Below, piece by piece: positions 18,446 to 58,243 of a stretch of 64,000 nt of DNA (within the stretch, counting starts at the first letter, position 1; every line of letters starts with the position of its first letter). The notes under the pieces are model-generated. The model searched no databases. It saw nothing but the letters and a program-made list of their open reading frames with translations, and was not told the origin of the DNA. A program made the position numbers and the translations under genes. The DNA is from a virus. Its lineage: Duplodnaviria > Caudoviricetes. The stretch is from the IMG/VR virus record IMGVR_UViG_3300042260_000337. One strand, given 5' to 3'.

Positions 18446-19426
18446 ATGGCAAAAATAGTAATCGGTGACTTAGATGTGTTTTATCTAAGCTATGATGAAC
18501 CAAACAAAGAAGAACATTGGGCGAATCTTTTGCAGAAGTTCCCGTTTGCTAAACGAGTGGATGGCGTCAAAGGATTTGACAATGCACATAAAGAATGTGC
18601 AAGGCAAAGTGAAACTGAACGTTTTATTACGATTGATGGCGACAATATTGTCAGCGACGAAAAGTTCTTTGACCTTGAAATTAGTATCCCAGAAAATACA
18701 AACATGGCAAACTCAGTTCTTAGTTGGTCGGCAAAGAATGTAGTAAACGGTCTGGTGTATGGAAATGGTGGAATTAAGTGTTGGCCAGTTCAACTTGTGT
18801 TGGACATGAAAACCCACGAAAACGCTGATAACGAATCAAAGAAGTTAGACTTCTGTTGGGATTTGAATTACATTCAAATGAACAATGTCTACTCACATGT
18901 GTTCAATGCTGGTTCTCCATTTCAGGCGTTCCGTTCAGGTTATCGTGAAGGTGTAAAGATGTCTCTGGATCAAGGACATGTTGTTCCAGCAAAGCAGTTC
19001 AAAAAACGTATATGGCCAAAGAACTATGAGCGTCTTTTGACTTGGTGCAATATAGGAGCAGACGTTGAAAATGGACTATGGGCCATATACGGCGCAAGAT
19101 TGGGATGCTTGGAAACTAATATAACAAAGTCGCTTCCAATTGATGGTATATCAAACTATGAATGGTTTAAGGATTATTTTGACGCTGAAATTCTTCCAGA
19201 ATTTAAAAATGGCGATGAGTATTGTAATAAAACCAAAGTTCACTGGAGCTACGATAAACTGTATGATGCCACACTTGATGTTGGCGACCAATTGATGGAT
19301 TCATTAGCAATGGAACTATGCGACCCGACTCCTGAGATGTCTGCGTTCTTCAAACGAGTTTATGTGAACCCACCACGGGTGGCAAACCCAATAGCCACCG
19401 AAAAACAAACTGGATGGGACAAGTAA
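18446..19426 (+). CDS. GT-A-like glycosyltransferase, paralog of the C-terminal domain of 40951-43392
   Basis: 'FYLSYDEPN', 'AKRVDGVKGFDNAHK', 'IDGDN' (DxD), 'NGLVYGNGGIKCWP', 'PFQAFRSGYRE'. Confidence 0.6.
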   Translation: MAKIVIGDLDVFYLSYDEPNKEEHWANLLQKFPFAKRVDGVKGFDNAHKECARQSETERFITIDGDNIVSDEKFFDLEISIPENTNMANSVLSWSAKNVVNGLVYGNGGIKCWPVQLVLDMKTHENADNESKKLDFCWDLNYIQMNNVYSHVFNAGSPFQAFRSGYREGVKMSLDQGHVVPAKQFKKRIWPKNYERLLTWCNIGADVENGLWAIYGARLGCLETNITKSLPIDGISNYEWFKDYFDAEILPEFKNGDEYCNKTKVHWSYDKLYDATLDVGDQLMDSLAMELCDPTPEMSAFFKRVYVNPPRVANPIATEKQTGWDK

Positions 19427-21012
19427 TGAGTAAAACTCTAGATGATTTTAACTGGGAACGGCAAAAAGGAAGTAATGACATAATATCGTCACATTCTAAT
19501 GTCGAAAATGTAAAAGTATTGCTTGATAGCAAGGGACCAGGATTTTGCCTAGCAAAATTCAAGCAAGTGACACTTCATTTGGGAACTGGGTTGGTGCATT
19601 CATGCCATCACCCTAGTCCCCATAAGATTGACAAAACCGAGTTAGAAAACAACGTAATGACATTATTCAATACGTCAAGATTGAAACAAGTTCGCAAGCA
19701 AATGCTAAACGGAGAAAGACCTCGCGAATGCGACTATTGTTGGCGCATTGAAGATAACAAAAGCACCAGCGACCGTCATTTCAAGAGTGTTGAGCCATGG
19801 GCGATTGGCGACCATGACAAAATTGCGTCATACACTGGCGACGAGGATATATTTCCCTCATATCTTGAGGTTGATTTTAGTAACGTATGTAACCTACAAT
19901 GCACTTATTGTGGACCAGAGTTCAGTTCAAAATGGGTTGAAGACCTTAAACATAACGGTCCATTGAAAGTTTTAGAGGGAACTCCAAGCGAAAGTTGGGT
20001 TCAGGGCTGGCAAGACTTAGAAACGCTAAACATAAAAAATCGTGATGTCAACCCTTATATTGATGCATTTTGGGAATGGTGGCCATCTGCATATCCACAT
20101 CTAAAACATTACCGAATTACGGGCGGTGAACCTCTGATGAGTAAAGAAACCTTCCGCAGTATGGATTGGTTTATAGAGAACCCAAACCCAAATCTTGAGT
20201 TCAGTATCAATACAAATCTTTCTGTTCCCGATAAATTGTGGGAAAAATTTGTTGAAAAGTTAAAGTTACTGAATGATGGTAAAACTGTTGCAAAGATTAC
20301 GGTTTACACCAGTGTTGAAGGATGGGGTGCAGCCGCTGAGTATGCAAGAACTGGTCTGGATTTTGAACTCTTTAAGCGTAGATTTGAAGAATTGGCTTCT
20401 ATAGGAAACGTCCGTTGTGTGATTATGGCCGCTTTCAATATATTTAGTGTCACTACATTTCAGAAACTACTTGAATGGGTGTATGAGTTAAAATGCAAGC
20501 ATAATACTAATGTTGGAGCAATAGGGATGGAAAAAGAAACTGGGTATGCGTTAGCATCTCCTAGTTTATCAGACCGTGAAACTCACAATCCAACTCTTGC
20601 TCGTTCATACGTAGTGGGGCTTGATATTCCATATTTGAGAAGTCCTGCCATGTTGGATGCACACAATATTTCGCATGAGTTGGTTGAAAAGTATTTGATA
20701 CCATCACTAGACTACATGGCAAGCCATGCTGCATGGGATTCTTGGAGTAATCATCAAGGATTTGAACGTCACGAAATTGAAAAACTTCGTAGAATTGTTG
20801 TTCATCGTATGTATCATAACAGAAAGAACGACCCAACCGACAGCCATTTTGAGACTCTTAAACAGCGGGCAATGTTTTACGACTTTGTAAATGAAAACGA
20901 CAAGCGCAGAGGGTCAAACTTTTTGAACTCGTTTCCTGAAATGACTGAGTTCTACCAGTTGTGTGAAGCCGCGAAAAAAGAGTTTATCTCGCTTCTTGGA
21001 AATAAACAGTAA
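19426..21012 (+). CDS. Radical SAM protein 1 with N-terminal twitch-type domain
   Basis: CxxxCxxC 'CNLQCTYC', 'ITGGEPL'; N-terminal 'FCLAKF...SCHH...CDYCW'. The start at 19426 (TAATG overlap) is preferred over 19414. Confidence 0.9.
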   Translation: MSKTLDDFNWERQKGSNDIISSHSNVENVKVLLDSKGPGFCLAKFKQVTLHLGTGLVHSCHHPSPHKIDKTELENNVMTLFNTSRLKQVRKQMLNGERPRECDYCWRIEDNKSTSDRHFKSVEPWAIGDHDKIASYTGDEDIFPSYLEVDFSNVCNLQCTYCGPEFSSKWVEDLKHNGPLKVLEGTPSESWVQGWQDLETLNIKNRDVNPYIDAFWEWWPSAYPHLKHYRITGGEPLMSKETFRSMDWFIENPNPNLEFSINTNLSVPDKLWEKFVEKLKLLNDGKTVAKITVYTSVEGWGAAAEYARTGLDFELFKRRFEELASIGNVRCVIMAAFNIFSVTTFQKLLEWVYELKCKHNTNVGAIGMEKETGYALASPSLSDRETHNPTLARSYVVGLDIPYLRSPAMLDAHNISHELVEKYLIPSLDYMASHAAWDSWSNHQGFERHEIEKLRRIVVHRMYHNRKNDPTDSHFETLKQRAMFYDFVNENDKRRGSNFLNSFPEMTEFYQLCEAAKKEFISLLGNKQ

Positions 21013-25884: not shown

Positions 25885-25902
25885 ATGATAAACTCCTTCG
25901 CT

Positions 25903-26880: not shown

Positions 26881-26885
26881 ATTCA

Positions 26886-26913
26886 TATTTATGTCAAAAT
26901 AAATGCATAAATA
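26886..26913. promoter_or_regulatory. Back-to-back T4-late-like boxes CATAAATA (minus 26886-26893; plus 26906-26913)
   Basis: Both boxes lie in the divergent intergenic gap. The minus box is 5 nt from ATG 26880. Confidence 0.65.
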
Positions 26914-35713: not shown

Positions 35714-35718
35714 AAAAC

Positions 35719-35732: not shown

Positions 35733-35737
35733 TGAAT

Positions 35738-38511: not shown

Positions 38512-39255
38512 ATGCTATACGCAAACGGATGTAGTTTCACGGCTGGAACAGGATTAGATGATGAAGAAAAGGCGTGGCCTTTTCTTCTAGGTGACTTGAT
38601 GGGAATTGATAGAGATAGAGTTCTCACCGAAGCAAACAAGGGAGTGAGCAATCAGTATATTGTTCGTTCTGCCATTACTTCGTTGAGTAATTTGCTTGAG
38701 ATTGGCGACCGTCCATTTGTTGCCATTGGTCTTACTGCGCCATCCCGTAGAGAATTTTATTACAGCAAAAATGGTGGAAAACTAATACACAACATTCCAT
38801 CTCCAGAGTTTCAACATATTGATGGATTAGATGACACATCAAATTCTGAACTACATGTGTTCAACAATCTGTATATCAAATACTTGTGGAACCCCGTATA
38901 CGATTTTCATTTGTATATGACACATGTATTGACATTACAGAATTTTCTCAAAGCAAACGACTTGGATTATATCATATTCAACAGTTTGAATCTTACTCCA
39001 AATCTTACTGAAGAAAACAAGTTTGAAGCGTTGTGCCATCAAGCCAACATGAGTGCTGTATTCAAACAGTTTGATATGAACCGAATATATGAAGACCAGA
39101 CATTTTTTACATACATGTATGACAGAGGTCTATACTTCACGGATGAAGGAACTGATGCATTTATGCATCCAAATGAACAAGCACATAAAGAATGGGCAGA
39201 TGTTCTAATGAGAGACATCACTGCTACTATGATAAAGGAAAGAATGAAGAGATGA
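38512..39255 (+). CDS. SGNH/GDSL-like hydrolase or acyltransferase
   Basis: 'YANGCSFTAG', 'GVSNQYIVR', C-terminal 'DAFMHPNEQAH'. Confidence 0.65.
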   Translation: MLYANGCSFTAGTGLDDEEKAWPFLLGDLMGIDRDRVLTEANKGVSNQYIVRSAITSLSNLLEIGDRPFVAIGLTAPSRREFYYSKNGGKLIHNIPSPEFQHIDGLDDTSNSELHVFNNLYIKYLWNPVYDFHLYMTHVLTLQNFLKANDLDYIIFNSLNLTPNLTEENKFEALCHQANMSAVFKQFDMNRIYEDQTFFTYMYDRGLYFTDEGTDAFMHPNEQAHKEWADVLMRDITATMIKERMKR

Positions 39256-39377
39256 TAGGATATATCAAAGATTTTTGGGCGATTGTAACATATCCATATA
39301 GAGATTGGAAACGCCGAAAAGAACTAAAAAAGAGAATTGAAGAACTACGCAAGCGCGATCCATTCATATACAAGTAA
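39252..39377 (+). CDS. Small basic protein (41 aa, MIGYIKDF...KRDPFIYK)
   Basis: ATGA overlap with the upstream gene; ends 9 nt before the carbamoyltransferase. Confidence 0.65.
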   Translation: MIGYIKDFWAIVTYPYRDWKRRKELKKRIEELRKRDPFIYK

Positions 39378-39386
39378 GGTTTTGAC

Positions 39387-40907
39387 ATGAAAGTAATGGG
39401 AATATCTGGTGCATTGAATCATGATGCGGCAGTCTCTATCGTAGAAGATAGTCAAATACTATATGCATCACACAGTGAGAGATATAGTAAAATCAAAAAC
39501 GATTGTAACCTGAATAGTGAAATTATACAGGATGCACTGTCACACGGCAAGCCAGATGTTATAGCTTGGTATGAAAACCCATATCTCAAAAAGACCAGAC
39601 AACTATGGGCTGGACAGTATGGTTATGCAACAGACATAAACGACATACCAAGACGATACATAAACCAGAATTTCCCACAGTTGAAAAACATTCCCATTGA
39701 GTATCAGTCTCATCATTACACACATGCCGCGAGTGGATATTTCACAAGCAAGTATTCCGATGCTTGCATCATCGTGCTAGACAGTATAGGCGAATGGGAA
39801 ACTTTCACCATATGGAATGGCAGCGGAACCACAATGGATAAGATATACAGTCAATCATATCCTCACTCTGTTGGGTTGTTCTATTCTGCAATGACACAAC
39901 GTCTTGGCCTAAAACCGCAGGAAGATGAATATATTCTGATGGGTATGGCGGCATATGGAGATGCATATCGTAAAGTAAATGGTGTTCCTCTTGTGTATCA
40001 GATATTCCGAGACTTTGGTATTCGGTTTCACCATGACAATAAAGTGGTTTTCTTCAAAGAGAACCTACATCGCGGATGCAAGTGGTGGATGCCAGAGTTG
40101 AATACTGAACAAGACCATTTTGATATTGCAGCGGCGACACAGCTTGTATATGAAATAATATTGCGACAGGTAGTAACCCACGCCAAGAAGTTATGCAGTA
40201 GCAAAAATCTGGTGTTGATGGGCGGATGTGCGTTGAACTGTTCAGCAAATTCGACTATCACCGAAGAATACGACAGTGTGTGGATAATGCCAAATCCAGG
40301 TGATGCTGGTTCGTGCATCGGTGCAACTCAAAAGTTTTTCAACCAGCGTATCAACTGGAGCACTCCGTATCTTGGATATGATATAAAAGGTGAATATCCT
40401 ATTGAGAATGTGCTTGATGATTTGCTAAAGGGAAATATATGCGGCATTGCATCGGGTCGTGCTGAATTTGGTCCAAGAGCATTAGGAAATAGAACGCTAA
40501 CTGCTGACCCACGTGGTGATGAAATCAAAGACAGAATGAACGAAATAAAGAAACGACAAAAGTTTCGTCCATTTGCTCCTATGATTTTAGAAGAAGATGC
40601 CAGCGACTATTTTGCATTGCCAACAAACATAGTTCAGTCTCCTTATATGCAGTATGTTGCAACATGTAAGTATCCAAAAGATTTTCCAGCTATCATACAC
40701 GCTGATGGAACATCTCGTGTTCAGACAGTCAATTCAACTCAGCATCCTCAGTTGTATGAGTTGCTGAAATCATTCAAGGACAAGACTGGATGCCCTATGT
40801 TGGTGAATACTTCTCTGAACATAAAGGGTATGCCAATCGTCAACGACGAAGAAGACGCCAAAAAATTTCAAGCGTATTATGGCATAAACGTCTTTACATC
40901 TGTGTAA
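39387..40907 (+). CDS. Carbamoyltransferase (NodU/CmcH family)
   Basis: 'HDAAVS', 'ERYSKIKND', 'HHYTHAASG', 'EYILMGMAAYG', 'GGCALNCSAN', 'EFGPRALGNR', 'RQKFRPFAP', 'DGTSRVQTV', 'LVNTSLN'. Confidence 0.95.
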   Translation: MKVMGISGALNHDAAVSIVEDSQILYASHSERYSKIKNDCNLNSEIIQDALSHGKPDVIAWYENPYLKKTRQLWAGQYGYATDINDIPRRYINQNFPQLKNIPIEYQSHHYTHAASGYFTSKYSDACIIVLDSIGEWETFTIWNGSGTTMDKIYSQSYPHSVGLFYSAMTQRLGLKPQEDEYILMGMAAYGDAYRKVNGVPLVYQIFRDFGIRFHHDNKVVFFKENLHRGCKWWMPELNTEQDHFDIAAATQLVYEIILRQVVTHAKKLCSSKNLVLMGGCALNCSANSTITEEYDSVWIMPNPGDAGSCIGATQKFFNQRINWSTPYLGYDIKGEYPIENVLDDLLKGNICGIASGRAEFGPRALGNRTLTADPRGDEIKDRMNEIKKRQKFRPFAPMILEEDASDYFALPTNIVQSPYMQYVATCKYPKDFPAIIHADGTSRVQTVNSTQHPQLYELLKSFKDKTGCPMLVNTSLNIKGMPIVNDEEDAKKFQAYYGINVFTSV

Positions 40908-40950: not shown

Positions 40951-43392
40951 ATGGCGTTTGATGGATTTTTTCTCACCACTAAACAAGATGTGGATGCCAG
41001 ATCAAGATTTGAAAAAATAAAATCGCAGCTTCCAAATATAAAGATGCTTCATATTCCAAAGGATACGTGGGAAGACAATACCATGGTATCTGCGGTTGTT
41101 GAAGCAGTCCAAGAAGTCAACACTAGGTATTTTTGGGTTATAGACCCAGATGTTTTAGTTGATGACGAATTTGATTTTTCTTTTGAGCCTGATGAATGGA
41201 ATAAAGATGTTCTTCATTATTGGAACTGCGAAACTAGAAACGACACCAACCGAGTAGTTGGAATAAAACTGTATAAGACAAAAGATGTTTTTATTGGAGT
41301 TGACGAATATGTTAATAAGTCTTATTACTTAGATGTCCCTCATTTAAATCATACAACAACTCTTCCATCTTATTCACCAACAAAAGAAATATACGATGTT
41401 TTTCGTGTGAATAACATATATGACATTGAGCCATACGCAAATCAATCATACACTACTATGTTTTGGATGATTGATAACGCTGTGTCTCCATATATGAAAG
41501 ATATTGACACATTTGAGATTTCTCCATACGATCAGGGGCTTATTCATAATTTCTCTGTGAAATTACCAAATGGGTCGGTTGTTATAAATGGGATTCGACT
41601 GGTTCCAAAACGTTATGACTTGACTATGCAAAAGGACATGTATGACGTATTGGGCGATGTGGACAATGTAGAAATCGTATATGCCAGAACACCAGAAGAT
41701 GCAATTGAACTAGCTAATTCATACTCATTTTGGATGGTAAATCCAGATTTAGAATTGATAGAGCCATCTGTAATAGATGAGTTCTATCCAAACATTCATG
41801 ACCCCATATCCGCGCATGTGTATAAAATTCAATCCAAGTCAGGGAACGATTTTGGATACGGCGGTATAATGTTTTTGAATAAAAAATATAGTGCGGGTTC
41901 TATTAGTCATCTTGACCGTTTTGCAATGACAACTCCATCCGTATGCAGGGTTCCAATATATAATAGCAGGGACCACCATGATGTCTTCGTGAATAAGTCA
42001 AAAGATGATTACCTTTATTGGTATGTGGATTCAGCAATATCAACTCTTGACGAGTTCAAATACGATTTTTATCCTGATATATATAGCATGAATAATGTCT
42101 TCACTTTCAATGGTGGCGGCGGTGGGACAGGGGTTTATTTTGTAAATCGTAAGTTCTTGTCTCAGTTTGAATTGACAGAAGAAGATTTTCTTTATGACCG
42201 TTTTCAGAATCTAAAACATATTGACCAAGTGGTAAGCAAGTCTGCGTCACATCCAGTGTTTTATTTTGACGAAGGATTGTATCCAGAAAATACTAAAAAA
42301 ATCAAATCTATATCTGATATTCAGGTAATAGACTCAACTGATTTAGAAGCTGCATATGTGCAAGCTGCTACTCTTACGACCACAGGATATTTCTGGGCAA
42401 TTGATAATGATGTTGAACTGAAAGATTTCAATTTTCCAAGATCGTATTATGTTGACCGAGCAAACAAATCACACTATGTTGTGTGGCCCAAAGAGAACCC
42501 ATACACGGGTCTTGTTTACCAATATGGCGGCGTAAAGTTGTGTCCATCTGAAGCAACCCTGCATCTAAAACCAGATGCCGACAAAATTCGTAGAACCAAC
42601 TTTGCCAATAAAATTCACGTCAAAACGCCAACGGCAAGGTCGCGTGATATACCATATGATACCATATTTCTAAGTTACAATGAACCATTTGCCGATGAGA
42701 ACTACGAAAAACTATTGAAAAGAGTTCCAAATGCAAAACGTGTTCATGGCGTTAAGGGTATCTTTAATGCACACAAGAAGGCAGCGGAACTGGCAGAAAC
42801 AAAAATGTTTTATGTAGTGGACGCTGATGCCATTCTACTTGACGAGTTTGAATTTGAATACTTTCCTAACTATTGGGATGAAGACACCGTTCACACTTGG
42901 CGTTCAAAGAACCCAGTGAATGGATTGGTATATGGATATGGAGGTCTGAAACTATTTCCTACTAAACTATTGAGAAATGCAACCGATTGGAAAATTGACT
43001 TCACCACATCGGTGACCGATAAATTCAAACCCATGCAAGTGGTTGCAAACTACACTGCATTTAATACCGACCCATTCAACACTTGGAAATCCGCATTTCG
43101 TGAATGCACTAAACTAGCAGCAAACATCATTCAACGTGGTGACTCTACAGTAAACAATGAAAGACTTACTACATGGTGTGAAGTTGGTGCAGACAAACCT
43201 TTTGGCGAATACGCCATTGCGGGTGCCAAAATGGGAAAGGCACATGGAACTAAATATTCAACAAATGAAGTTGAAATTTCTAAGATAAACGATTTTGAAT
43301 GGCTAAAAGCCAAATTTGAGGAAACATACAATGACAACAGCAACAAGAGAACGCAGAGCAAGAAGAAACTCCAAAATAAAAAAGCACGATGA
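40951..43392 (+). CDS. 813-aa protein of tandem GT-A-like repeats with a C-terminal glycosyltransferase-like domain
   Basis: Five related motifs: YFWVIDPD, SFWMVNPD, LYWYVDSA, YFWAIDND, MFYVVDAD. The last domain matches 18446-19426 ('FLSYNEP', 'GVKGIFNAHK'). Confidence 0.6.
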   Translation: MAFDGFFLTTKQDVDARSRFEKIKSQLPNIKMLHIPKDTWEDNTMVSAVVEAVQEVNTRYFWVIDPDVLVDDEFDFSFEPDEWNKDVLHYWNCETRNDTNRVVGIKLYKTKDVFIGVDEYVNKSYYLDVPHLNHTTTLPSYSPTKEIYDVFRVNNIYDIEPYANQSYTTMFWMIDNAVSPYMKDIDTFEISPYDQGLIHNFSVKLPNGSVVINGIRLVPKRYDLTMQKDMYDVLGDVDNVEIVYARTPEDAIELANSYSFWMVNPDLELIEPSVIDEFYPNIHDPISAHVYKIQSKSGNDFGYGGIMFLNKKYSAGSISHLDRFAMTTPSVCRVPIYNSRDHHDVFVNKSKDDYLYWYVDSAISTLDEFKYDFYPDIYSMNNVFTFNGGGGGTGVYFVNRKFLSQFELTEEDFLYDRFQNLKHIDQVVSKSASHPVFYFDEGLYPENTKKIKSISDIQVIDSTDLEAAYVQAATLTTTGYFWAIDNDVELKDFNFPRSYYVDRANKSHYVVWPKENPYTGLVYQYGGVKLCPSEATLHLKPDADKIRRTNFANKIHVKTPTARSRDIPYDTIFLSYNEPFADENYEKLLKRVPNAKRVHGVKGIFNAHKKAAELAETKMFYVVDADAILLDEFEFEYFPNYWDEDTVHTWRSKNPVNGLVYGYGGLKLFPTKLLRNATDWKIDFTTSVTDKFKPMQVVANYTAFNTDPFNTWKSAFRECTKLAANIIQRGDSTVNNERLTTWCEVGADKPFGEYAIAGAKMGKAHGTKYSTNEVEISKINDFEWLKAKFEETYNDNSNKRTQSKKKLQNKKAR

Positions 43393-49116: not shown

Positions 49117-49922
49117 GCAACCGACCAAGAATAGACCCACTCACCGAACAAGTGTTGAATGAGTATAACCTTTACTACTACGAATGTCCGTTGAATGAAA
49201 TCCCGTTTCAGTCATGTGGCAGCAAAGAGTATATTCCAGATGATACCATACTGTTTCATTATCGCAATCTGAACTATCACTTGTTGTCATACACAAACTA
49301 TTTCAAGCCAATCATTGGAAATATAGTGAGAACTGGATGCTGGTTGGTGACGGATATGACAAGAAATGGAATACAGAGTCCACTCAGTATGTTTGAAACA
49401 CATGTCCATCCTGGAAAAAAAAGATATATGGTTGCAAACTATTTACAGGTTGACAGAGTTCCAATATTGTGGCAAACTAAACAGTCGCATCCTACCTATC
49501 AAAAAGTATCAAACATGTCAGACCTTTCGGATGTATACAAAAACAACTTTAGCACTCGTGTTGAAGTGTATGAAAATGAAATGAAGTTAGAATGTAGCTG
49601 GCATGGCGCTACCAACAGCCGCGATGCCAAGGGGTATGACAACTGGTGGAAGATAAGCAATGAATCTATAGGTTCAAACGTTATACTTGACTACATCACT
49701 CGCTACGGTGTTCGCATCAATGACACCAGTGTTCCATTTTATATATTGGTGGATGATGACCTTCATTTTGATTGGTGGCAGTTGTATTTTCATTTTGACC
49801 CAACTGTATATCGCAAAGTGTGTAAGACTGGTAAAATAGAAATCATAAATACCTTTGCAAATAACAAAGAAACTATTTACGATTGTAACCTTATGAAAAC
49901 TCTATTGCGGCCAAATTTATGA
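49101..49922 (+). CDS. Hypothetical protein (273 aa)
   Basis: Coupled ORF. 'HPGKKRYMVA' faintly recalls a ParB/Srx-like motif (weak). Confidence 0.6.
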   Translation: MFEDISNRPRIDPLTEQVLNEYNLYYYECPLNEIPFQSCGSKEYIPDDTILFHYRNLNYHLLSYTNYFKPIIGNIVRTGCWLVTDMTRNGIQSPLSMFETHVHPGKKRYMVANYLQVDRVPILWQTKQSHPTYQKVSNMSDLSDVYKNNFSTRVEVYENEMKLECSWHGATNSRDAKGYDNWWKISNESIGSNVILDYITRYGVRINDTSVPFYILVDDDLHFDWWQLYFHFDPTVYRKVCKTGKIEIINTFANNKETIYDCNLMKTLLRPNL

Positions 49923-50545
49923 ATAAATCAAACTCATTAGAACATTTGTTTCCACTTCACCTTTTAATGAAACGAAAGTCCGAGTTTAGGACAGTAATTG
50001 ATGTTGGCGTGAATAAGATTCGATACTTGGAGTTTTATAGCCAATATTTTGACAACGTAATAGGAGTGGAGCCAAATCCTATTACATATAGTGAAATGTC
50101 AAACTGGTTACCAAGTAATGTTAGATTGGATGGCATATGTCTATCTAATATTTCTAACGTTACTACCTTTTATGGATGCATGTTGGATTCTGGTTATAGC
50201 ACGATGATACGAGATAGATATAATCAACTCATTGAAGACGGCGAGTTTTCTAAAGACGATTTTATTGAATATCATATTCCAACCGATAAGATTGATAATA
50301 TTTACAAGAATGAAAATTCAGTTGACCTTATTAAAATTGATGCAGAATATGAAGATATAAACATATTTCTAGGTGCGATTGACTTGGTGAATAGGAATAG
50401 ACCTATAATTCAAATTGAACACATAGAACATCATATTAACACTGATGTGTTTTTTGATACGATTAAAGAAATTAACTATGTTGAGATAAAACCATACTTT
50501 GAAAGTAGAAATTATTTTTTCATACCGAAAGAAGATATTATATGA
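49919..50545 (+). CDS. FkbM-family methyltransferase
   Basis: 'VIDVGVN', 'GVEPNP', 'LIKIDAE', 'RPIIQIE'. Confidence 0.8.
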   Translation: MNKSNSLEHLFPLHLLMKRKSEFRTVIDVGVNKIRYLEFYSQYFDNVIGVEPNPITYSEMSNWLPSNVRLDGICLSNISNVTTFYGCMLDSGYSTMIRDRYNQLIEDGEFSKDDFIEYHIPTDKIDNIYKNENSVDLIKIDAEYEDINIFLGAIDLVNRNRPIIQIEHIEHHINTDVFFDTIKEINYVEIKPYFESRNYFFIPKEDII

Positions 50546-51948: not shown

Positions 51949-53257
51949 TAGATTGCATTGCCCAATGAGTTATGCGGTGTATAAGTTCCAACCAGAAATT
52001 GGAGAATTTTCCGCTTGCTGTGACGCAGTTGTGTATAAATTCAATAAAGACTGGTTTGAAGAATTGGGGCCAGATTATTTTGAAAAGTTTCCAACTCTTA
52101 TCGACCGTAAAAAAGCATTATACAATGACGAGCGGCACATTGACTGCAAGCAATGTTGGGAAAAAGAAGACATCGGACTTCGTAGTATGCGTCAAATATT
52201 TGGACCACGGTATACGAGTTTACATAATAACCGAAATTTGTTAGTTGACAAGGCATACGTGTCGCGTGTGGAATTATGGATGAACTCTACTTGTAATGTC
52301 GGATGCTTTATGTGCAACTTGGGTAACAGTAACACTCTTCGAAAAATATGGAGTGACACGTTTGATTCAAATGGTCACGATGGAAAAGGGTATGATAGTT
52401 GGATAAACCAAAACAACTACCAAACGGACTATAGAGAAACGTTCACTGGATACATGATAGACTTTGCAGTCAATGCATTAAAAAATGCAGAGCATGGAAT
52501 GAATATCGCTTATTTGGGTGGAGAGCCGACACTTCACAATGAAATGTATGACCATGCTGACATTTTTATTGAGGCAGCAAAAGAAAATGTGAAACTAGGA
52601 AAAGATTTCATAATACAGATTGTGACAAATGGAACTAGTAAACCAAAATTGAACGAACGGTTCATGGGGATGTTTCAGAAGTATAAAGAAGCTGGTTGGA
52701 ATACATCCATAATGTTGAGCCAAGATGCGGCAGACAAATATGTTGATGTGCGACATGGTTCAGACTTCAACGCAATAAAAAACAATTTTTCATCTTGGAT
52801 ATCTGCCAATAGCCTTATTGACAGCATAAAAAGTCATACGGTAATTAGTAATTTGAACCTTCCGTATATGGACAACATGGCAAGATACTTGCATGATACC
52901 ATTTTAAATAATTACATTGGCGATAGAGAATTAGAAATAAACTTTAATACATTGACACATCCTAAATGGATGCATTTAAAATATCTTCCACGAAAATATG
53001 CTGAAACTCAGATACTAAATGCAAAAGATATTCTGACAACGGTAAAATCTGAATTTGGTATAAGGATTAACACAGAAGTATTTGATGAGATATTAAGAGT
53101 ATTGCCCGAACAAATATCCCAAGACGATGCAGAAATGATTTTTTCTAAATACAAATATGTTGCAGCACAATACAAAAAAGTGTATAATGGTTGGGATTTC
53201 TTTGAAACATTTGAACACTTAAAACCATTTGCAGAAGAGTATGGAATAGATATATGA
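51941..53257 (+). CDS. Radical SAM protein 11 with N-terminal twitch-type domain
   Basis: N-terminal 'HCP...ACC...CKQCW'; 'CNVGCFMC', 'LGGEPT'. Confidence 0.88.
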   Translation: MTDRLHCPMSYAVYKFQPEIGEFSACCDAVVYKFNKDWFEELGPDYFEKFPTLIDRKKALYNDERHIDCKQCWEKEDIGLRSMRQIFGPRYTSLHNNRNLLVDKAYVSRVELWMNSTCNVGCFMCNLGNSNTLRKIWSDTFDSNGHDGKGYDSWINQNNYQTDYRETFTGYMIDFAVNALKNAEHGMNIAYLGGEPTLHNEMYDHADIFIEAAKENVKLGKDFIIQIVTNGTSKPKLNERFMGMFQKYKEAGWNTSIMLSQDAADKYVDVRHGSDFNAIKNNFSSWISANSLIDSIKSHTVISNLNLPYMDNMARYLHDTILNNYIGDRELEINFNTLTHPKWMHLKYLPRKYAETQILNAKDILTTVKSEFGIRINTEVFDEILRVLPEQISQDDAEMIFSKYKYVAAQYKKVYNGWDFFETFEHLKPFAEEYGIDI

Positions 53258-54476: not shown

Positions 54477-55178
54477 ATGATACTTGAATGCGAAATATCT
54501 GGGCAAAAGATTGACTTTGATATACCAGAAAAATATAAGAAGATAGGCGTAAATTGTAGTGGCGGCGCAGACAGTAGTATTCTCCTGTTGATGGTAATTC
54601 AATACCTTGTTGATAACAACCGAACTGATACTACGGTATCCGTTACAACTTGTTCTAATGACAAGAAGGGTAGATGGAACGGTAGACGTGCTGCTGATGT
54701 AATTGAATACGCAATGAACAAGACCAAGTTTCAAAACTTCGATTTGCATTATACATATTATCGTGACGTTCAAGACGAGAAATACTTTCATGAGGTAGAA
54801 AACAAGCTATTTTCTGATGGCAGAGTAGATATGTTCGTTAGTGGAATAACGAGTAACCCACCTATCGGGGAAACGGTTGAAAACATCAAAGGTCAGACGA
54901 TTGTGTTGTCTGATGATATGCTTCCGTCTAGGAATGGCACTAACCACCAACTATGGTATTACGATAATGCAAAAGCATTTTACACTCCATATGCCAACGT
55001 TGATAAAAGATTTGTCGCGTCTATGTATAATAAATATGACGCAAATGATTTGTTTGATTTGACTCGTAGTTGTGAGTCAATCCCCGACGAAGGGGAAGAC
55101 ATATCAGTTTTTGAAAAGACACCATGTGGTAAGTGCTGGTGGTGTTTAGAACGTAAATGGGCATTTGGGAGATTCTAA
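54477..55178 (+). CDS. QueC-like PP-loop ATP pyrophosphatase (copy 1)
   Basis: PP-loop 'VNCSGGADSS'; 'LTRSCE', 'CGKCWWCLERKWAFG'. Confidence 0.75.
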   Translation: MILECEISGQKIDFDIPEKYKKIGVNCSGGADSSILLLMVIQYLVDNNRTDTTVSVTTCSNDKKGRWNGRRAADVIEYAMNKTKFQNFDLHYTYYRDVQDEKYFHEVENKLFSDGRVDMFVSGITSNPPIGETVENIKGQTIVLSDDMLPSRNGTNHQLWYYDNAKAFYTPYANVDKRFVASMYNKYDANDLFDLTRSCESIPDEGEDISVFEKTPCGKCWWCLERKWAFGRF

Positions 55179-55891
55179 TGAGTTTGGTTCTTACAGGAAA
55201 AAGTGGAGAGACCGTAGAAATCGTTCTACTTCCGAAATACAAAAAGGTTGCAGTAAATTGTAGCGGCGGTGCAGATAGTAGTATACTCCTATATATTCTT
55301 GCCAAATACATAAAGGATAACAATCTTGATGTCAAGTTGAGTGTGTTGACATGCAGCACCGATGTAAAAGATCGTTGGACTGGCAGAAAAGCAGAACTTG
55401 TTACCAATTACATAATTGAAAATGTTGGTTCTGGAATAATAGATATGCATTATATCTATTTCAGAGAACGACCAAAACTTGAAGATTTCCATGAAATAGA
55501 AAATTCGTTGTTTTCTGATGGTAGAGCGCACCTAATCGTAAGTGGTATAACATCGAACCCGCCAGATGGGGCATCGGTAGAAGATATTGACGGCAACACA
55601 ATAGACTTGTCTTTGGGAGCGCAAGCAAACAGAAATGGGTCGGACCATGACATATGGCATATTTCTACCGATGGCAAAGGAGACTTTTGGAGTCCATTTG
55701 CGAATGTGGATAAGAAGTTCATAGCAGACCAGTATGATGCGTATGGAGTGAGAGACACGCTTCTTCCTCTCACACGAAGCTGCGAAAAGAAAACTCCATT
55801 GGATGCAAAGTTTGACCCAATGTTTGAGGAAACTCCTTGTGGCATTTGTTGGTGGTGCTTAGAACGAAAGTGGGCATTCGGGTATTTCTGA
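55178..55891 (+). CDS. QueC-like PP-loop ATP pyrophosphatase (copy 2)
   Basis: 'VNCSGGADSS', 'LTRSCE', 'CGICWWCLERKWAFG'; ATG 55178 in a TAATG overlap. Confidence 0.75.
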   Translation: MSLVLTGKSGETVEIVLLPKYKKVAVNCSGGADSSILLYILAKYIKDNNLDVKLSVLTCSTDVKDRWTGRKAELVTNYIIENVGSGIIDMHYIYFRERPKLEDFHEIENSLFSDGRAHLIVSGITSNPPDGASVEDIDGNTIDLSLGAQANRNGSDHDIWHISTDGKGDFWSPFANVDKKFIADQYDAYGVRDTLLPLTRSCEKKTPLDAKFDPMFEETPCGICWWCLERKWAFGYF

Positions 55892-57096
55892 TGACTGATA
55901 AGCGTTATGTATGCAGCAAAATGTTCACAGATATGAACATAAAATTTCCATATAACTGTGTGAAAAATTGCTGCAAATCCAACGATTATGTATCTTCGGT
56001 AGAAGATTTGAAGTCTGATGATTTTTTTATTTTCAACACCGAATATATGCGCCGTAAAAAAGACATGGTTCTGAATAACCAACTTCCAACTGGTGGATGT
56101 GATACATGTATAAAAATGGGAGACCACAGTTTATTTGAAGAATGGAACGTGTGGGGACGTGATATGCAAGATGATCACGACATACTAGTAGATGATATGT
56201 TCAATACATACGAAATGGTGTTATCTAGTGCATGTGATTTGAAATGCATTTATTGTTCACCTAAAGATAGTTCAAGTTGGGCGAAAGAAAAGGGTGTTCC
56301 GCAAAACAAAGGAAATGATGAATGGAAACACCTAGTTATTTCTAAATTAATCTCATCATTGAAAACAAAAGTATTCAGAGACGATAACATATATACATTT
56401 TTTTTCAGTGGCGGCGAACCAACATATAACCCAGAAACATTGGATTTTGTGAATGAAATATTAAAATATGTTCCAACCGACCGAACACGAATTTGTATAA
56501 GCACCAATGCAAATACCAAACCTAAAGTATTCAAAAAATACTTGGATGCTATACAATCCGACTTGAGCGTGAATTGGATATTTGATTGCAGTATAGATGG
56601 AATCAAAGAAGTATGCGAGGCAATAAGATACGGTATTTCTTGGAACACAGCAATTAAAAACATAGAAGTATTACTTCAACAGCCAAACGTAACGGTCAGA
56701 ATATCTCCGACCGTAAATCTATACAGTGTTCCAACTATGAATGAATATATCAAATATTTTATTGAATTATTTGACAAATATGGTAAAATACATCACGAGA
56801 TGTTTAATTACAATATGGCACAAGAGTCGGGAATGTCTCCTGCTAACTTACCATCAGGGTATAAAAAATGTCTTGATGAACCAATTGAACAATTGAAAGA
56901 ATTGGGCATATCTTATTATGAACATTTAGAAAATGTAAGAAATATAATAGGAACTGACCACAACGAATATAAAACACAATGTATGAAAACTACATTTGAA
57001 TATTTCAAAACAAAACGCCCAACCACTAATTGGGAGGAATTATTTCCTCACATAGTAGATATAATAGGAAAAAATGACGGAAATAAACAAAGATAG
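55891..57096 (+). CDS. Radical SAM protein 13 with N-terminal twitch-type domain
   Basis: N-terminal 'VCSK...NCC...CDTC'; 'CDLKCIYC', 'FSGGEPT'. ATG 55891 in a TGATG overlap. Confidence 0.88.
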   Translation: MTDKRYVCSKMFTDMNIKFPYNCVKNCCKSNDYVSSVEDLKSDDFFIFNTEYMRRKKDMVLNNQLPTGGCDTCIKMGDHSLFEEWNVWGRDMQDDHDILVDDMFNTYEMVLSSACDLKCIYCSPKDSSSWAKEKGVPQNKGNDEWKHLVISKLISSLKTKVFRDDNIYTFFFSGGEPTYNPETLDFVNEILKYVPTDRTRICISTNANTKPKVFKKYLDAIQSDLSVNWIFDCSIDGIKEVCEAIRYGISWNTAIKNIEVLLQQPNVTVRISPTVNLYSVPTMNEYIKYFIELFDKYGKIHHEMFNYNMAQESGMSPANLPSGYKKCLDEPIEQLKELGISYYEHLENVRNIIGTDHNEYKTQCMKTTFEYFKTKRPTTNWEELFPHIVDIIGKNDGNKQR

Positions 57097-58243
57097 TCTG
57101 TATTGGTCGCAATACGATTTTACAAAAATACCATTTGACGACTTAGTTTCAGTGGGACAGAGAACCCTTCTCTATCGTGATTTGTTTTCGGTGAGTTGGC
57201 TACTTGGTAGGTTCTGTAACTACAAGTGTTCATATTGCTGGCCATATGCCAGAAGTGACAAAAAGGACCATCGCCCCACTGCCCTCTGTCTAGCTACTAT
57301 AGACGAAATAAAAAGACAGGCCAGAGATAACGGATTCAACAGCTTTCATTTCAGTCTATCGGGTGGCGAACCAACATTCCATCCTGGTTATTTAGATATG
57401 TTGGGTCACCTAGCAAATGATGTAGAAAATACAAACTTTACCAGTATTCATATGACTACAAACATGGCACGTAAGATGGATTGGCATCAAAAATATTGTG
57501 ATATTGCGGCTAAATTCAATCGTGCATCAATCACTGCGAGTTACCATAGTGAGTTCGCAGATAAAGACGAGTTCGTAGATAAACTGCATTTGTGTATGGA
57601 GCACGATGTTCAGGTAACAATCAATATGGTGTTGGTGCCTGAATGGTTTGATAGAGACTGGCAGAACGCACTGTATTTTCATGAGCGTGGAATAAACGTC
57701 ACGTTGAAACCACAAAGTGATACATCGGCCAGTAGGGTAGTAGATGGATACACGCCAGAACAACTTGCTATCATGCGCAATGGAATGCCCCAGAGAGACT
57801 ATACGAAGGCCATACAAGAGCAACGTGGCATCAAGGTAGTCAGACCCACACCGAAGCTAGGAAGCCTCTGGAAAGCCGATATGGAAGCAGGAGACGATAA
57901 GTCAGTTCCAGCTATGATGCAAGTTGAGTTTCAAGATAGCACTGGACAGAAGTGGTATATGGACCAAGCAGAACGATTCAATGCTTTTGGCTTCAACAAA
58001 TTCAAAGGATGGGAATGTTCTAGTGGATTTCGTGGCATCATCATCCGTGAGCCTGATGGGTCAATAAAGCGTTCATATAGCTGTTCTGACGAACCCCTTG
58101 GGTATATTGAAAGCGGGTTCAAGTTATTTGATTCCCCGAAACCTTGCATAAGTGAAAGCTGTGTATCAAGTGCAGATAGTAAAATACCGAAACGAAAGCC
58201 GGGAGCGAAAATTCCACTGTATCCAAAAGACCCTATAAAGTAA
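57074..58243 (+). CDS. Radical SAM protein 14 with C-terminal Cys-rich domain, related to rSAM12 and rSAM7
   Basis: 'WLLGRFCNYKCSYC', 'LSGGEPT'; C-terminal 'GWEC...SC...CISESCVS'. Confidence 0.9.
   Translation: MTEINKDSLYWSQYDFTKIPFDDLVSVGQRTLLYRDLFSVSWLLGRFCNYKCSYCWPYARSDKKDHRPTALCLATIDEIKRQARDNGFNSFHFSLSGGEPTFHPGYLDMLGHLANDVENTNFTSIHMTTNMARKMDWHQKYCDIAAKFNRASITASYHSEFADKDEFVDKLHLCMEHDVQVTINMVLVPEWFDRDWQNALYFHERGINVTLKPQSDTSASRVVDGYTPEQLAIMRNGMPQRDYTKAIQEQRGIKVVRPTPKLGSLWKADMEAGDDKSVPAMMQVEFQDSTGQKWYMDQAERFNAFGFNKFKGWECSSGFRGIIIREPDGSIKRSYSCSDEPLGYIESGFKLFDSPKPCISESCVSSADSKIPKRKPGAKIPLYPKDPIK

Follow-up and report, generated by a model that had tools for sequence, protein, structure and literature searches.

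Nine radical SAM (rSAM) genes of an uncultured jumbo myovirus carry a twitch domain ahead of the catalytic core, in the inverse of the conventional order. They lie in the window, the stretch of 64,000 nucleotides analysed here, which is part of a phage genome of about 380 kb. The genes are intact, old paralogs that purifying selection maintains; recurrent partner families accompany them in synteny or, elsewhere, are fused to them (Table 1). Judging from gene context, we think that the best reading of the N_Twi enzymes is the tailoring of a sugar or glycan, predicted to be a surface glycan, with about an even chance of being right.

Radical SAM genes of the island

The CX3CX2C motif occurs in exactly 14 window ORFs of at least 100 aa, against a mean of 0.16 carriers (maximum 3) when the residues of the same 56 ORFs were shuffled 500 times, so the count of fourteen made in the first-pass annotation holds. 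Its statement that a GGEP-type motif follows in most of them also agrees with our search, which found GGEP or GGES 45-75 residues downstream of the rSAM motif in 12 of the 14, the exact motif being absent from 35732 and 44275 (genes are named by their first position). Likewise, four cysteines precede the rSAM motif in all nine ORFs said to have an N-terminal cluster, and the five said to have a C-terminal one (35732, 44275, 45905, 53254 and 57074) do have it. Our ORF calling differs from the earlier one in four starts (19414/19426, 35732/35738, 47983/48010 and 55837/55891, ours first). All 14 reading frames are intact, and Pfam and NCBIfam searches found in them no Pfam family other than Radical_SAM, SPASM and Fer4_12. 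As had been noted before, no window ORF matched an Fe-S assembly or flavodoxin family.

Table 1. Features of the window discussed in the text
Feature	Position	Strand	Evidence
Baseplate wedge subunit, cut by window edge	3-3788	+	phrog_10646, E 5e-140
Virion structural protein, 3134 aa	3792-13196	+	phrog_10938, E 7e-181
Two GT8-like glycosyltransferase paralogs	16160-17017 and 17010-17873	+	profile match, synteny
GT-A-fold protein immediately 5′ of first N_Twi	18446..19426	+	AF2 model, pLDDT 87.4
N_Twi_rSAM paralog 1, 532 aa	19414..21012	+	NF033640 298.9 bits, profile 3-398 of 398
N_Twi_rSAM paralog 2, 471 aa	21017..22432	+	NF033640 302.6 bits
N_Twi_rSAM paralog 3, 421 aa	23232..24497	+	NF033640 354.2 bits; Pfam SPASM 11-79 (38.2 bits) ahead of Radical_SAM 128-286
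N_Twi_rSAM paralog 4, 433 aa	26935..28236	+	NF033640 339.4 bits; SPASM 14-81
Conventional rSAM, C-terminal SPASM/twitch, 303 aa	35732..36643	+	Radical_SAM 9-157; SPASM 223-286, E 5e-10
DUF6071 (SGNH-like N-terminus) and NodU/CmcH-type carbamoyltransferase	38512..40907	+	Pfam
813-aa protein, C-terminal third a GT-A-like module as in 18446	40951..43392	+	paralogy
rSAM, C-terminal C-x18-CC...C-x3-C domain, 362 aa	44275..45363	+	conserved Cys
Compact rSAM, 319 aa	45905..46864	+	Radical_SAM 52 bits; three conserved C-terminal Cys
N_Twi_rSAM paralog 5, 390 aa	46845..48017	+	NF033640 376.8 bits, profile 1-398
N_Twi_rSAM paralog 6, 377 aa	47983..49116	+	NF033640 202.8 bits; SPASM 13-75
FkbM-family methyltransferase	49919..50545	+	PF05050, E 1.5e-10
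Core N_Twi_rSAM, 468 aa	50542..51948	+	NF033640 415.1 bits
Divergent N_Twi-like rSAM, 438 aa	51941..53257	+	NF033640 144 bits (cut-off 170)
rSAM, eight conserved C-terminal Cys, 403 aa	53254..54465	+	Radical_SAM 43 bits
Two PP-loop ATPase paralogs	54477-55178 and 55157-55891	+	SGGxDS and C...CxxCxxC, QueC-like layout
N_Twi_rSAM paralog 9	55837..57096	+	NF033640 171.8 bits, barely above cut-off
rSAM, C-x21-C-x20-C-x4-C tail, 389 aa	57074..58243	+	conserved Cys

The 14 rSAM genes form three families: the nine N_Twi, two of the conventional C-terminal SPASM/twitch type and three compact ones with C-terminal Cys clusters of their own. Gene 35732 is the only one of the five recognised by Pfam SPASM; none of the fetched loci contained a relative, and it reached the cut-off of no NCBIfam family. 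The C-terminal clusters of the other four are kept across each one's own family. In 44275, C258, C277, C278, C346 and C350 are kept at a frequency of at least 0.96 in 121 relatives; in 45905, C255, C301 and C306 are invariant; and for 53254, all 32 relatives retain C249, C250, C279, C301, C339, C344, C346 and C349, which would be enough for two auxiliary clusters. The C-terminal domain of 44275 aligns with the N-terminal domain of N_Twi (hhalign probability 75%, E 2.4e-5), and by its sequence this protein looks like a non-permuted counterpart of N_Twi. It belongs to the conserved island core: 79 of 80 related loci contain a relative, at identities with a median of 30% and a maximum of 76%. So does 57074, the final gene of the island, whose orthologues were found in 35 loci (median identity 70%) and on Bdellovibrionota chromosomes (59-65%). 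The best NCBIfam match of 45905 is to prokaryotic viperin, but its 52 bits lie below the cut-off of 180 and it is therefore not a member.

The relocated twitch domain

The family named in the first-pass annotation, N_Twi_rSAM, was the correct one. In our HMM search the NCBIfam model NF033640, which has the same order of twitch and then rSAM core, covered all nine proteins full length, eight of them above its curated cut-off of 170 bits. We found no characterised member, substrate, structure or paper for this family in the searched literature and PDB. It is only a catalogue entry there; here nine of its genes are arrayed within an island of a phage genome, with one copy below the cut-off. The N-terminal pattern of the nine is C-x17/18-C(C/H/G)-x40-60-CxxC. 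Its four cysteines are invariant in the nine and in 72 diverse relatives (mean identity about 20%), in which CX3CX2C and GGE are invariant as well, and the core has GGEP, TN and SxDG motifs of the SPASM/twitch type. When the N-domain profile was compared with the whole PDB, BtrN was the sole match. The domain aligns to BtrN residues 166-238, and all four invariant cysteines fall on C169, C187, C232 and C235, the ligands of its auxiliary cluster. Thus a genuine twitch domain has been relocated to the N-terminus, and the inverted architecture proposed earlier is borne out by both BtrN and the domain order of NF033640.

BtrN, the founding twitch enzyme (PDB 4M7S/4M7T), is the 2-deoxy-scyllo-inosamine dehydrogenase of butirosin biosynthesis and oxidises a carbohydrate-like aminocyclitol. 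However, its twitch domain follows the core, and the N_Twi proteins are 130-280 residues longer, with a helical C-terminal region absent from BtrN. Sequence similarity does not extend beyond the twitch domain and generic core, and the two may or may not share a reaction.

Among solved structures, the catalytic core comes closest in both sequence and fold to SPASM/twitch enzymes that mostly modify peptides: TigE (8VPO, E 4.6e-17), then SkfB (6EFN), CteB (5WGG), anSME (anSMEcpe, 4K36) and SuiB, with structural matches (Z 10-11, at most 10.9) confined to the generic rSAM core. This counts against a sugar substrate. Together with the position of the island immediately 3′ of structural genes, it could mean that the rSAM enzymes act like RiPP maturases and anSME and cross-link, epimerise or oxidise a protein or peptide, be it a tail fibre, the giant virion protein or a precursor that escaped recognition. 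We nevertheless consider this unlikely. In SPASM/twitch maturases and anSME the auxiliary domain is C-terminal, usually with two clusters, whereas N_Twi has one, at the N-terminus; the maturases act on peptides with leader recognition, while no precursor was found in the window, nor any conserved small ORF or shared N-terminal tag among the island proteins. Since Radical_SAM, SPASM and Fer4_12 were the only Pfam families in the 14 proteins, none of them has a Pfam-recognised RRE (peptide-recognition) domain. The partners are GT-A/GT8-like proteins, with fusions to methyltransferase and PP-loop domains, and not peptidases or transporters, and BtrN, the sole solved twitch-domain relative, acts on a small carbohydrate.

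The nine paralogs, mutually 20-48% identical, represent at least seven old lineages, the nearest relative of each lying mostly in another genome. Paralog 1 (with 19426 as another possible ATG start, and CH in place of the twitch CC) belongs to the subfamily found in a conserved GT module and has orthologues in 175 viral contigs at 40-62% identity; paralog 2 is its tandem duplicate (47% identity). Paralogs 3 and 4 share 48% identity, and the anSME model aligns through its SPASM part (profile 274-358 of 412) with residues 12-97 of the latter as well. Paralog 5 is the most compact and most canonical copy, and the start of paralog 6 is uncertain (TTG 47983 or GTG 48010). For paralog 9, which lies 3′ of two PP-loop genes, ATG 55891 (401 aa) is likely the true start rather than 55837, since it gives a 1-nt overlap with the upstream stop and places the first Cys at residue 8, as in the paralogs. 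The core gene (50542; AF2 model pLDDT 87.5) is the one copy kept throughout the phage clade, with an orthologue in 80 of 80 related loci at 77-85% aa identity. A peptide-pattern search found no close relative of 51941-53257 in IMG/VR, and every invariant column is present in it despite its score.

In related phages the N_Twi genes are under strong purifying selection: the core gene has a median dN/dS of 0.04 and the variable paralogs one of 0.067 (maximum 0.22). Loss of SAM-binding residues, or dN/dS near 1, in most copies had been named beforehand as the first ground for refutation; the residues are kept and selection is purifying, so that ground fails. The high copy number and the sub-threshold 51941-53257 could suggest that the array consists mostly of degenerating or redundant duplicates that serve no purpose individually, but this has hardly any chance of being right: all 14 frames are intact, catalytic and cluster residues are invariant, the low dN/dS already contradicts it, and several of these divergent paralogs have their own orthologues in other genomes.

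Phage and bacterial settings

The rSAM genes occupy a hypervariable island, about 42 kb long, that follows the genes for the baseplate and the giant virion protein. That the window is phage DNA was missed in the first-pass annotation, and so was the fact that such arrays are typical of this entire phage clade: related IMG/VR genomes of 382-383 kb have 10 matches each, all in one island, fragments have 4 to 17, and the 80 loci hold 58 N_Twi clusters at 40% identity. The module 15753/GT8-like/GT8-like/x/GT-A/N_Twi/GT-A is kept in 63-75 of the 80; the GT8-like pair is syntenic with the 19414-type N_Twi in 66-68, and 18446 adjoins it in 72.

The cultured Ralstonia phage RsoM2USA (MG752970) has the same GT8-like/GT8-like/small ORF/GT-A/N_Twi/GT-A module in its ORF348-354 and ORF202 region (32-48% aa identity; ORF349 is 35% identical to paralog 1), also downstream of a giant virion protein. 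Its second N_Twi gene accompanies DUF6071 paralogs and a carbamoyltransferase 50% identical to that of the window, but it has two N_Twi genes only, against nine here. ORF361, which was detected in virions by mass spectrometry (PMC8504454), weakly matches two stretches of the 3134-aa protein (24-30% identity) in a syntenic position. The genes of the module and those around the second N_Twi gene are all annotated as hypothetical, and the paper is silent on them (PMC8504454).

Pelagimyophages have, between gp14 and the giant gene VrlC, 'host recognition clusters' in which GT8 enzymes and 'radical SAM cassettes' accompany tail fibres and for which modification of the host O-antigen was proposed; the rSAM genes are mentioned only, with no family, architecture or count (Zaragoza-Solas et al. 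2020, PMC7029224). These clusters, in cyanomyophages too, are likewise hypervariable and located in the structural region after a giant gene, VrlC (PMC7029224). The genomes of these phages measure about 150 kb, whereas the window's lineage, at about 380 kb, is nearer to RsoM2USA.

A new finding is that the mixed cassette is also present, with the N_Twi family expanded, in predatory Bdellovibrionota, the cellular reservoir, which the first-pass annotation had missed too. In bacterial genomes the immediate N_Twi neighbours are mostly unrelated to glycosylation (3 GT1 among 76).

Partner genes and predicted substrates

The profile of the GT8-like family (A4) matches glycogenin (GT8) over residues 5-108 (E 1e-4), and D108 and D110 (DxD) are nearly invariant. 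Residues 3-155 of the 18446 model match GT-A glycosyltransferases (Z 8-9.6), with D64 and D66 (DGD) invariant. This protein is a paralog of 40951 (36% identity to its residues 570-790), which has a weak GT2 match (19.9 bits, under the gathering score) and which occurs in shortened form beside N_Twi genes of RsoM2USA and Bdellovibrionota. The five-member 24913 family provides further GT-A-like leads. The FkbM gene overlaps the core N_Twi start by 4 nt, and a fusion of FkbM and N_Twi (P0261) is known from other sequence; N_Twi and PP-loop fusions occur in six related loci, and there are 34 tandem N_Twi-N_Twi proteins. In the PP-loop pair SGG-DS and four Cys are invariant, with weak PP-loop matches only in the PDB. 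The carbamoyltransferase scores 142 bits with the NodU model, under its cut-off, and the island also holds nucleotidyltransferases, a kinase, a HAD phosphatase, an aminotransferase and SGNH-like proteins.

The QueC-like Cys layout of the PP-loop proteins, the TobZ/NodU-type carbamoyltransferase, the aminotransferase, the kinase and a RuBisCO-like protein could instead belong to a pathway whose product is not a glycan but a small molecule, or else a nucleotide or DNA base in modified form (aminocyclitol, nucleoside-type or deazapurine-like), with the rSAM enzymes as steps. The twitch homology to BtrN, an aminoglycoside pathway enzyme, speaks for this, as do the best matches of the three compact rSAMs, all sub-threshold, to viperin, MoaA and QueE, which act on nucleotides. 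We regard it as quite improbable, however: the neighbouring ThyA scores above the equivalog cut-offs for thymidylate synthase and thus looks like an ordinary one, not a hydroxymethylase, no window ORF has a Pfam match to QueD, FolE or TGT/DpdA, and four to nine GT-A-type genes would be left unexplained. The extreme variability of gene content around one core, with its 58 N_Twi clusters, better fits a diversifying surface structure than a fixed metabolite.

For sugar tailoring we count the twitch homology to BtrN, the synteny of the GT module, the carbamoyltransferase, NTP transferases, HAD, aminotransferase, FkbM, the fusions and a few sugar-pathway families inside larger bacterial arrays; against it, besides the relatives of the core, stand the bacterial neighbours and the weak assignments of the partner GTs (the E and Z values above, Pfam below threshold). 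The earlier proposal of sugar or glycan substrates is therefore supported in part: the link to GT-A/GT8-like genes is strong and conserved in phages, while most immediate neighbours in bacteria are of other kinds. From the context we infer a sugar as substrate, the type of reaction, and decoration of the virion or the host envelope.

The island would build and tailor a carbohydrate structure. SAM bound at the CX3CX2C cluster of an N_Twi enzyme would be reductively cleaved, and the 5′-deoxyadenosyl radical would abstract H from one defined position of a nucleotide-sugar or of a sugar residue already within the glycan. The second [4Fe-4S] cluster, in the N-terminal twitch domain, would, as BtrN does, take the electron of the substrate radical. 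An alcohol would thereby be converted to a ketone, from which epimerisation, amination, deoxygenation or C-C/C-O coupling may follow. Paralogs could differ by the position or the sugar attacked, and methyltransferases, PP-loop amidating enzymes and carbamoyltransferases could then process the same intermediate.

The larger bacterial arrays hold DegT sugar aminotransferase, PGM/PMM, SDR, AsnB-type amidotransferase and GDSL families. A classical-looking GT2, called so by its N-terminal motif only, also adjoins two N_Twi genes.

Radical SAM enzymes of the island

The CX3CX2C motif occurs in exactly 14 of the 56 substantial ORFs of the window, as the first-pass annotation had counted, whereas it turned up in a mean of 0.16 and a maximum of three ORFs when the residues of each ORF were shuffled (500 trials). 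A GGEP or GGES motif lies 45-75 residues downstream in 12 of the 14; exact GGEP is absent from 35732 and 44275 (genes are named by their start), both of which still pass Pfam PF04055. The gathering threshold of that profile (29.5 bits) is exceeded by 11 of the 14, with 19414 (29.1), 21017 (28.7) and 51941 (23.1) just under it. The motif, predicted to hold the SAM-binding [4Fe-4S] cluster, is invariant in the N_Twi alignments and has a frequency of at least 0.99 in the four other families with relatives (44275, 45905, 53254 and 57074). Only a few ORF start codons are in doubt.

The earlier assignment to N_Twi_rSAM stood up to an HMM check: the NCBIfam profile NF033640 matched nine ORFs over their full length, and eight reach its curated cut-off of 170 bits and are thus members, 55837 only narrowly. 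At 144 bits 51941-53257 is not a member by this cut-off and is better called a divergent relative, in which every invariant residue is retained. The five other radical SAM (rSAM) ORFs gave 26-66 bits in the core region only and are not members. Invariant columns of the nine-ORF alignment comprise four N-terminal cysteines, the three rSAM cysteines, S160, W163, G223, G224, E225, N255, S278 and R290. The cysteine cluster that had been described ahead of the rSAM motif in these nine ORFs is indeed present, with the spacing C-x17/18-C-x40-60-C-x2-C.

Coordinates of island and flanking features, with NF033640 scores of the N_Twi ORFs
Feature	Start or span	Strand	NF033640 (bits)	Remarks
N_Twi	19414		298.9	
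N_Twi	21017		302.6	
N_Twi	23232		354.2	
N_Twi	26935		339.4	
N_Twi	46845		376.8	
N_Twi	47983		202.8	
N_Twi (core)	50542-51948		415.1	
N_Twi-related	51941-53257		144	
N_Twi	55837		171.8	
Five-member paralog family	24913-26886, 31514-32350, 32816-33769, 34844-35806	-		N-terminal (L/F)YGQxR-type motif, no Pfam match
Two PP-loop ATPase paralogs	54477-55891			upstream of N_Twi 55837; SGGxDS and four invariant Cys

When a profile of 37 N_Twi N-terminal domains (A8) was compared with 177,635 distinct PDB sequences, BtrN was the sole match (E 1e-4, BtrN residues 166-238), and the alignment placed the four invariant N_Twi cysteines on BtrN C169, C187, C232 and C235, the ligands of its auxiliary [4Fe-4S] cluster. 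A full-length N_Twi profile likewise reaches BtrN via the N-terminal domain. Since BtrN was the only PDB match and all four cysteines align with it, the N-terminal domain is, on the strength of these alignments, a genuine twitch domain with ligands for one predicted cluster, relocated to the N-terminus. Only these four cysteines are invariant in the domain, and none other is conserved outside CX3CX2C (72 sequences); each N_Twi enzyme would then carry two predicted cluster sites. The second SPASM cysteine set is absent, which fits the single auxiliary cluster of a BtrN-type twitch. Pfam SPASM matches six of the nine ORFs, located before Radical_SAM, with three scores above the gathering value of 21.5 bits (38.2, 38.8 and 28.5) and three below. 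A conventional SPASM identity (PF13186 or TIGR04085) was rejected because the order is inverted and the cysteines of the second cluster are missing.

The AlphaFold2 model of the core N_Twi protein has high confidence (pLDDT 87.5, pTM 0.89) and resembles solved structures only as a generic rSAM barrel (SkfB, viperin, BlsE, MoaA, GDGT-MAS, SuiB, CteB and anSME; Z at most 10.9, TM 0.25-0.35 by query), and the Foldseek, VIA-align and AFDB-Swiss-Prot searches gave no functional hint. Its counterparts among AlphaFold DB clusters and in the ESM Atlas are unnamed proteins (TM 0.7-0.92), the Atlas clusters being 97-100% viral.

In the remaining five enzymes the rSAM motif comes first and the cysteine clusters stand at the end, as had been noted from the sequence. 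Four have clusters conserved within their own families: the 44275 family keeps C258, C277, C278, C346 and C350 at 0.96 or more (121 sequences), the 57074 family has C315, C358 and C363 at 1.0 and C337 at 0.89, and the 53254 and 45905 families have eight and three conserved cysteines, respectively. For the fifth, 35732-36643, the fetched loci contain no relatives; it alone of the five has a Pfam SPASM match, in the conventional C-terminal place. When the 44275-family C-terminal domain was aligned with the N_Twi N-terminal domain (hhalign; probability 75%, E 2.4e-5), the first cysteine, the G-x-v-x-P-C-C hairpin and the last cysteine pair coincided, and the 44275 family looks like a non-permuted form of N_Twi. 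Viperin, QueE and MoaA were considered for 45905, 53254 and 57074 and rejected, all scores being below the equivalog cut-offs (viperin_w_prok 52.4 against 180, QueE 31.5 against 206, MoaA about 36 against 284).

Maintenance and partners of the array

The window N_Twi paralogs share 20-48% pairwise identity and include only two tandem-duplicate pairs, 19414/21017 (47%) and 23232/26935 (48%); in a tree of 121 sequences, every window paralog outside these pairs is closest to a sequence from another genome. The 80 related loci that were compared contain 323 N_Twi ORFs, which group into 58 clusters at 40% identity; the median locus has 8 rSAM ORFs per 21 kb and the richest has 13. The core gene has an orthologue in all 80 loci (77-85% identity) and 57074 in 35 (median 70%), and homologues of 44275 occur in 79, the majority of them distant (median identity 30%, maximum 76%); for most remaining island genes these loci offer no close counterpart. 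Because synonymous sites are saturated between the core and 57074 genes and their nearest orthologues, with dN only 0.13-0.19, dN/dS was taken from closer pairs among the relatives instead of from the window genes. Its median was 0.04 for the core (n = 40 pairs) and 0.067, with a maximum of 0.22, for the variable paralog families (n = 60 pairs). The N_Twi copies are old genes, each individually maintained; decay of the copies is excluded, as the enzymes are intact and the old paralogs are under purifying selection.

N_Twi genes are tightly syntenic with, or fused to, genes for GT-A-type proteins, methyltransferases and PP-loop enzymes. A conserved module has the order 15753, the two GT8-like genes 16160 and 17010, 17870, 18446, an N_Twi gene of the 19414 subfamily and a short homologue of the 40951 C-terminus, and its parts were found in 63-75 of 80 loci that had been retrieved with 19414 as query. 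The 16160/17010 family profile matches glycogenin (GT8) at E 1e-4 over residues 5-108, with D108 and D110 (DxD) nearly invariant, and has no Pfam match at E 1e-3. In the 18446 model (pLDDT 87.4), residues 3-155 match many GT-A enzymes (Z 8-9.6, rmsd 3.1-4.0, about 135-140 aligned residues), among them the viral glycosyltransferases STIV A197, PBCV-1 A64R and Mimivirus R699, with same-fold nucleotidyltransferases scoring nearly as high. DGD is invariant in the 18446 family, whose profile had no meaningful match to PDB sequences. The C-terminus of 40951 is a second candidate GT-A partner. In the ESM Atlas, GT-A-like proteins are also among the structural neighbours of a virus-specific family of five paralogs (24913, 25903, 31514, 32816 and 34844). 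The Atlas relatives of this family are nearly all viral (Uroviricota, Nucleocytoviricota), and the clusters structurally close to it include capsular-polysaccharide, GT92, GT25, GT8 and sulfotransferase-like ones.

The FkbM methyltransferase and core N_Twi genes overlap at the start of the latter, and outside the window the two domains occur in one FkbM-N_Twi fusion protein (P0261). The PP-loop paralogs have a QueC-like layout, SGGxDS followed by TRSC...CGxCWWCxER, and their family matches PDB entries in the PP-loop motif only; amidation of a carboxylate or sulfur insertion are candidate roles. In six related phage loci (L020, at 12571-15054, L022, L024, L026, L029 and L080) a PP-loop domain is fused to the N_Twi C-terminus, and 34 long proteins are tandem N_Twi fusions. 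The island further encodes a RuBisCO-like protein, two MobA-like nucleotidyltransferases (one fused to a HAD phosphatase), a RIO-like kinase, a class I/II aminotransferase, DUF6071 and a NodU-type carbamoyltransferase. Some of these lie in a cassette at 28299-31517, made up of the RuBisCO-like protein, a nucleotidyltransferase, a small ORF, a protein whose IAHRG N-terminus is GDPD-like and the RIO-like kinase, which suggests an unusual activated sugar or polyol phosphate. The RuBisCO-like protein is best matched by RuBisCO large-subunit models, then by 3-oxo-isoapionate-4-phosphate decarboxylase and MtnW enolase models, all far under their cut-offs.

From the intact two-site enzymes, the inverted twitch, the purifying selection, the location in the structural region and the synteny and fusion with these partners, we infer, with confidence and doubt about evenly balanced, that the N_Twi enzymes tailor sugars, in which case the auxiliary twitch cluster would take up the electron of the substrate radical as in BtrN. 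Protein or peptide substrates, which we consider unlikely, are the main rival, since the nearest characterised relatives of the N_Twi core are peptide maturases. None of the 14 ORFs has a Pfam family beyond those related to rSAM, and hence none has a Pfam-recognised RRE of the RiPP type. In the ORFs of 100 aa or more we saw neither a conserved small ORF as adjacent precursor nor an N-terminal tag common to the neighbouring proteins. A non-glycan small molecule or a nucleotide as the product is less probable than a protein or peptide substrate. DNA hypermodification was set aside, as ThyA passes the thymidylate synthase equivalog cut-offs and transglycosylase and deazapurine genes are absent from the window.

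Phage setting and a cultured relative

The array has a fixed position in the structural and host-recognition region. The first two ORFs of the window encode a baseplate wedge subunit (phrog_10646) and a virion structural protein of 3134 aa (phrog_10938), and thymidylate synthase, an HNH endonuclease and a DUF2201/MoxR-AAA pair lie downstream of the island. In SAR11 T4-like phages a hypervariable 'host recognition cluster' lies between the giant VrlC gene and gp14 (Zaragoza-Solas et al., PMC7029224). The cultured Ralstonia phage RsoM2USA (344 kb) has the same module behind the giant protein ORF361, which was detected in virions by mass spectrometry (PMC8504454). Identity to the window is 32% for ORF353 and 40% for ORF352 (against the GT8-like genes), 48% for ORF350 (against 18446), 44% for ORF348 (against the C-terminus of 40951) and 35-37% for ORF349 (against the N_Twi genes). 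A second RsoM2USA N_Twi gene has three DUF6071-like genes at its flanks, together with a carbamoyltransferase gene that shares 50% identity with 39387. All these genes are annotated as hypothetical.

Compared by megablast with 50,697 GenBank phage records, 24 kb of the window gave no match. The core N_Twi protein has 3,878 metagenome relatives (E at most 1e-5), of which the best 120 share 78-86% identity with it. In IMG/VR it has 330, among which are two records (382 and 383 kb) that are complete by CheckV estimate. These two hold 10 N_Twi family matches each, and fragments hold 17, 14 and 4; in the related IMG/VR genomes nearly all matches lie in one island per genome. The moraphages, with genomes of up to 307 kb, are a separate lineage, described in a paper that makes no mention of radical SAM (PMC12619734).

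Three Logan contigs that encode protein P0263 (L083-L085) represent a phage-like lineage in which four rSAM genes, at least one of them N_Twi, are interleaved with an SbcCD-like nuclease pair (Metallophos and SMC_N/AAA_23); N_Twi arrays are thus present in more than one phage clade. In the minus-strand segment 60475-63653, the neighbours of the HNH endonuclease are a MoxR-type AAA ATPase and a DUF2201 metallopeptidase/VWA-like protein. Opposite each of the ORFs 61071-62456 and 62526-63653 runs an ORF of the same length on the other strand, and GC rises to 0.50 in this segment, compared with 0.37 in the island.

Neither sigma-70-like nor terminator-like sites are enriched in the window, and the T4-type late promoter box TATAAATA occurs three times where 6.2 were expected. 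At 35719-35732 the palindrome TATTTATATAAATA puts this box on both strands, in a probable short gap between the divergent genes 34844-35806 (-) and 35732-36643 (+), whose longest ORFs overlap. With only three boxes, below chance, it is the position of TATTTATATAAATA that is notable and not the count.

N_Twi arrays in Bdellovibrionota

A scan of one genome per GTDB species with the signature [FL]GNxCNLxCxMCxP gave at least 120 loci; among the matches listed, 84 were from Bdellovibrionota, and 115 of the 120 loci listed had an ORF that scores 100 bits or more against the family profile. In even samples, each of which includes a centre genome picked for having the family, N_Twi was found in 26 of 121 Bdellovibrionota and 2 of 121 Pseudomonadota genomes. 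None of 14 control genomes reached the family cut-off, and four had sub-threshold matches (one search). The closed 1.9-Mb Bdellovibrionales chromosome OZ220490.1 (genome G006; loci L171, L172, L179 and L287-L290) has at least 16 copies that exceed the cut-off, nearly all of them grouped into three tandem arrays, and four other genomes have 13, 9, 7 and 1. N_Twi_rSAM arrays are a feature of predatory Bdellovibrionota.

The immediate bacterial neighbours are mostly unrelated housekeeping genes; 76 of them included 8 further rSAMs and 3 GT1, and a Pfam tally found no dominant partner family. Among 62 non-rSAM ORFs of the large bacterial arrays there were three GDSL, two SDR and two class I/II aminotransferase proteins, and one each of DegT sugar aminotransferase, PGM/PMM and AsnB-type amidotransferase. 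The mixed cassette of the window recurs on a 936-kb Bdellovibrionia contig (genome G010; loci L240 and L291-L292) at 45-65% identity, with rSAMs of the 44275, 53254 and 57074 types (the last at 65%), a core N_Twi (63%), 40951C-like and 43316-like genes and a PP-loop protein.

More tentatively than the sugar tailoring itself, we propose that this mixed cassette, common to giant phages and predatory Bdellovibrionota, may be a hitherto undescribed system in which radical chemistry edits a surface or host-recognition polymer. Its members would be the N_Twi, 44275-type and 57074-type rSAMs, the GT-A proteins, the PP-loop enzymes and the methyltransferases, and each paralog would install a different radical-derived change on sugars (oxidation, epimerisation or a cross-link) during or after assembly; fast turnover of the paralogs would diversify the structure that meets the prey cell. 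If this is true, the N_Twi family would contain dozens of new radical-SAM reactions.

Auxiliary-cluster radical-SAM enzymes have been a repeated source of new chemistry. N_Twi_rSAM is a very large family, with matches below E 1e-30 in 7,384 clusters at 50% identity, here given a concrete biological setting in the host-recognition/glycan island of abundant aquatic jumbo phages, and its conserved partners and natural fusions narrow down the substrate. The family is already catalogued, and 'radical SAM cassettes' in such islands are mentioned once in the literature. In the literature that we searched we found no paper that assigns these cassettes to N_Twi_rSAM or aligns the twitch with BtrN residue by residue, and none that describes the conserved GT module also present in a cultured phage, the natural N_Twi fusions, or the N_Twi expansion and same mixed cassette in Bdellovibrionota. 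Experiments could start from RsoM2USA, whose minimal set has two N_Twi genes, or from Bdellovibrionota that can be cultivated, for instance Halobacteriovorax. If the N_Twi enzymes do edit sugars, phages own a large and fast-evolving toolkit for unusual glycans, with a bearing on host range, phage-phage competition and enzyme discovery.

Some of the matches attributed to metagenome-assembled genomes are probably phage contigs. A 33-kb contig binned as Crocinitomicaceae (L260, JBDNIA010000282.1) carries orthologues of the core N_Twi (76%), 44275 (53%) and 46845 (50%). Either it belongs to a related phage and was mis-binned, or it hints at a Flavobacteriales host.
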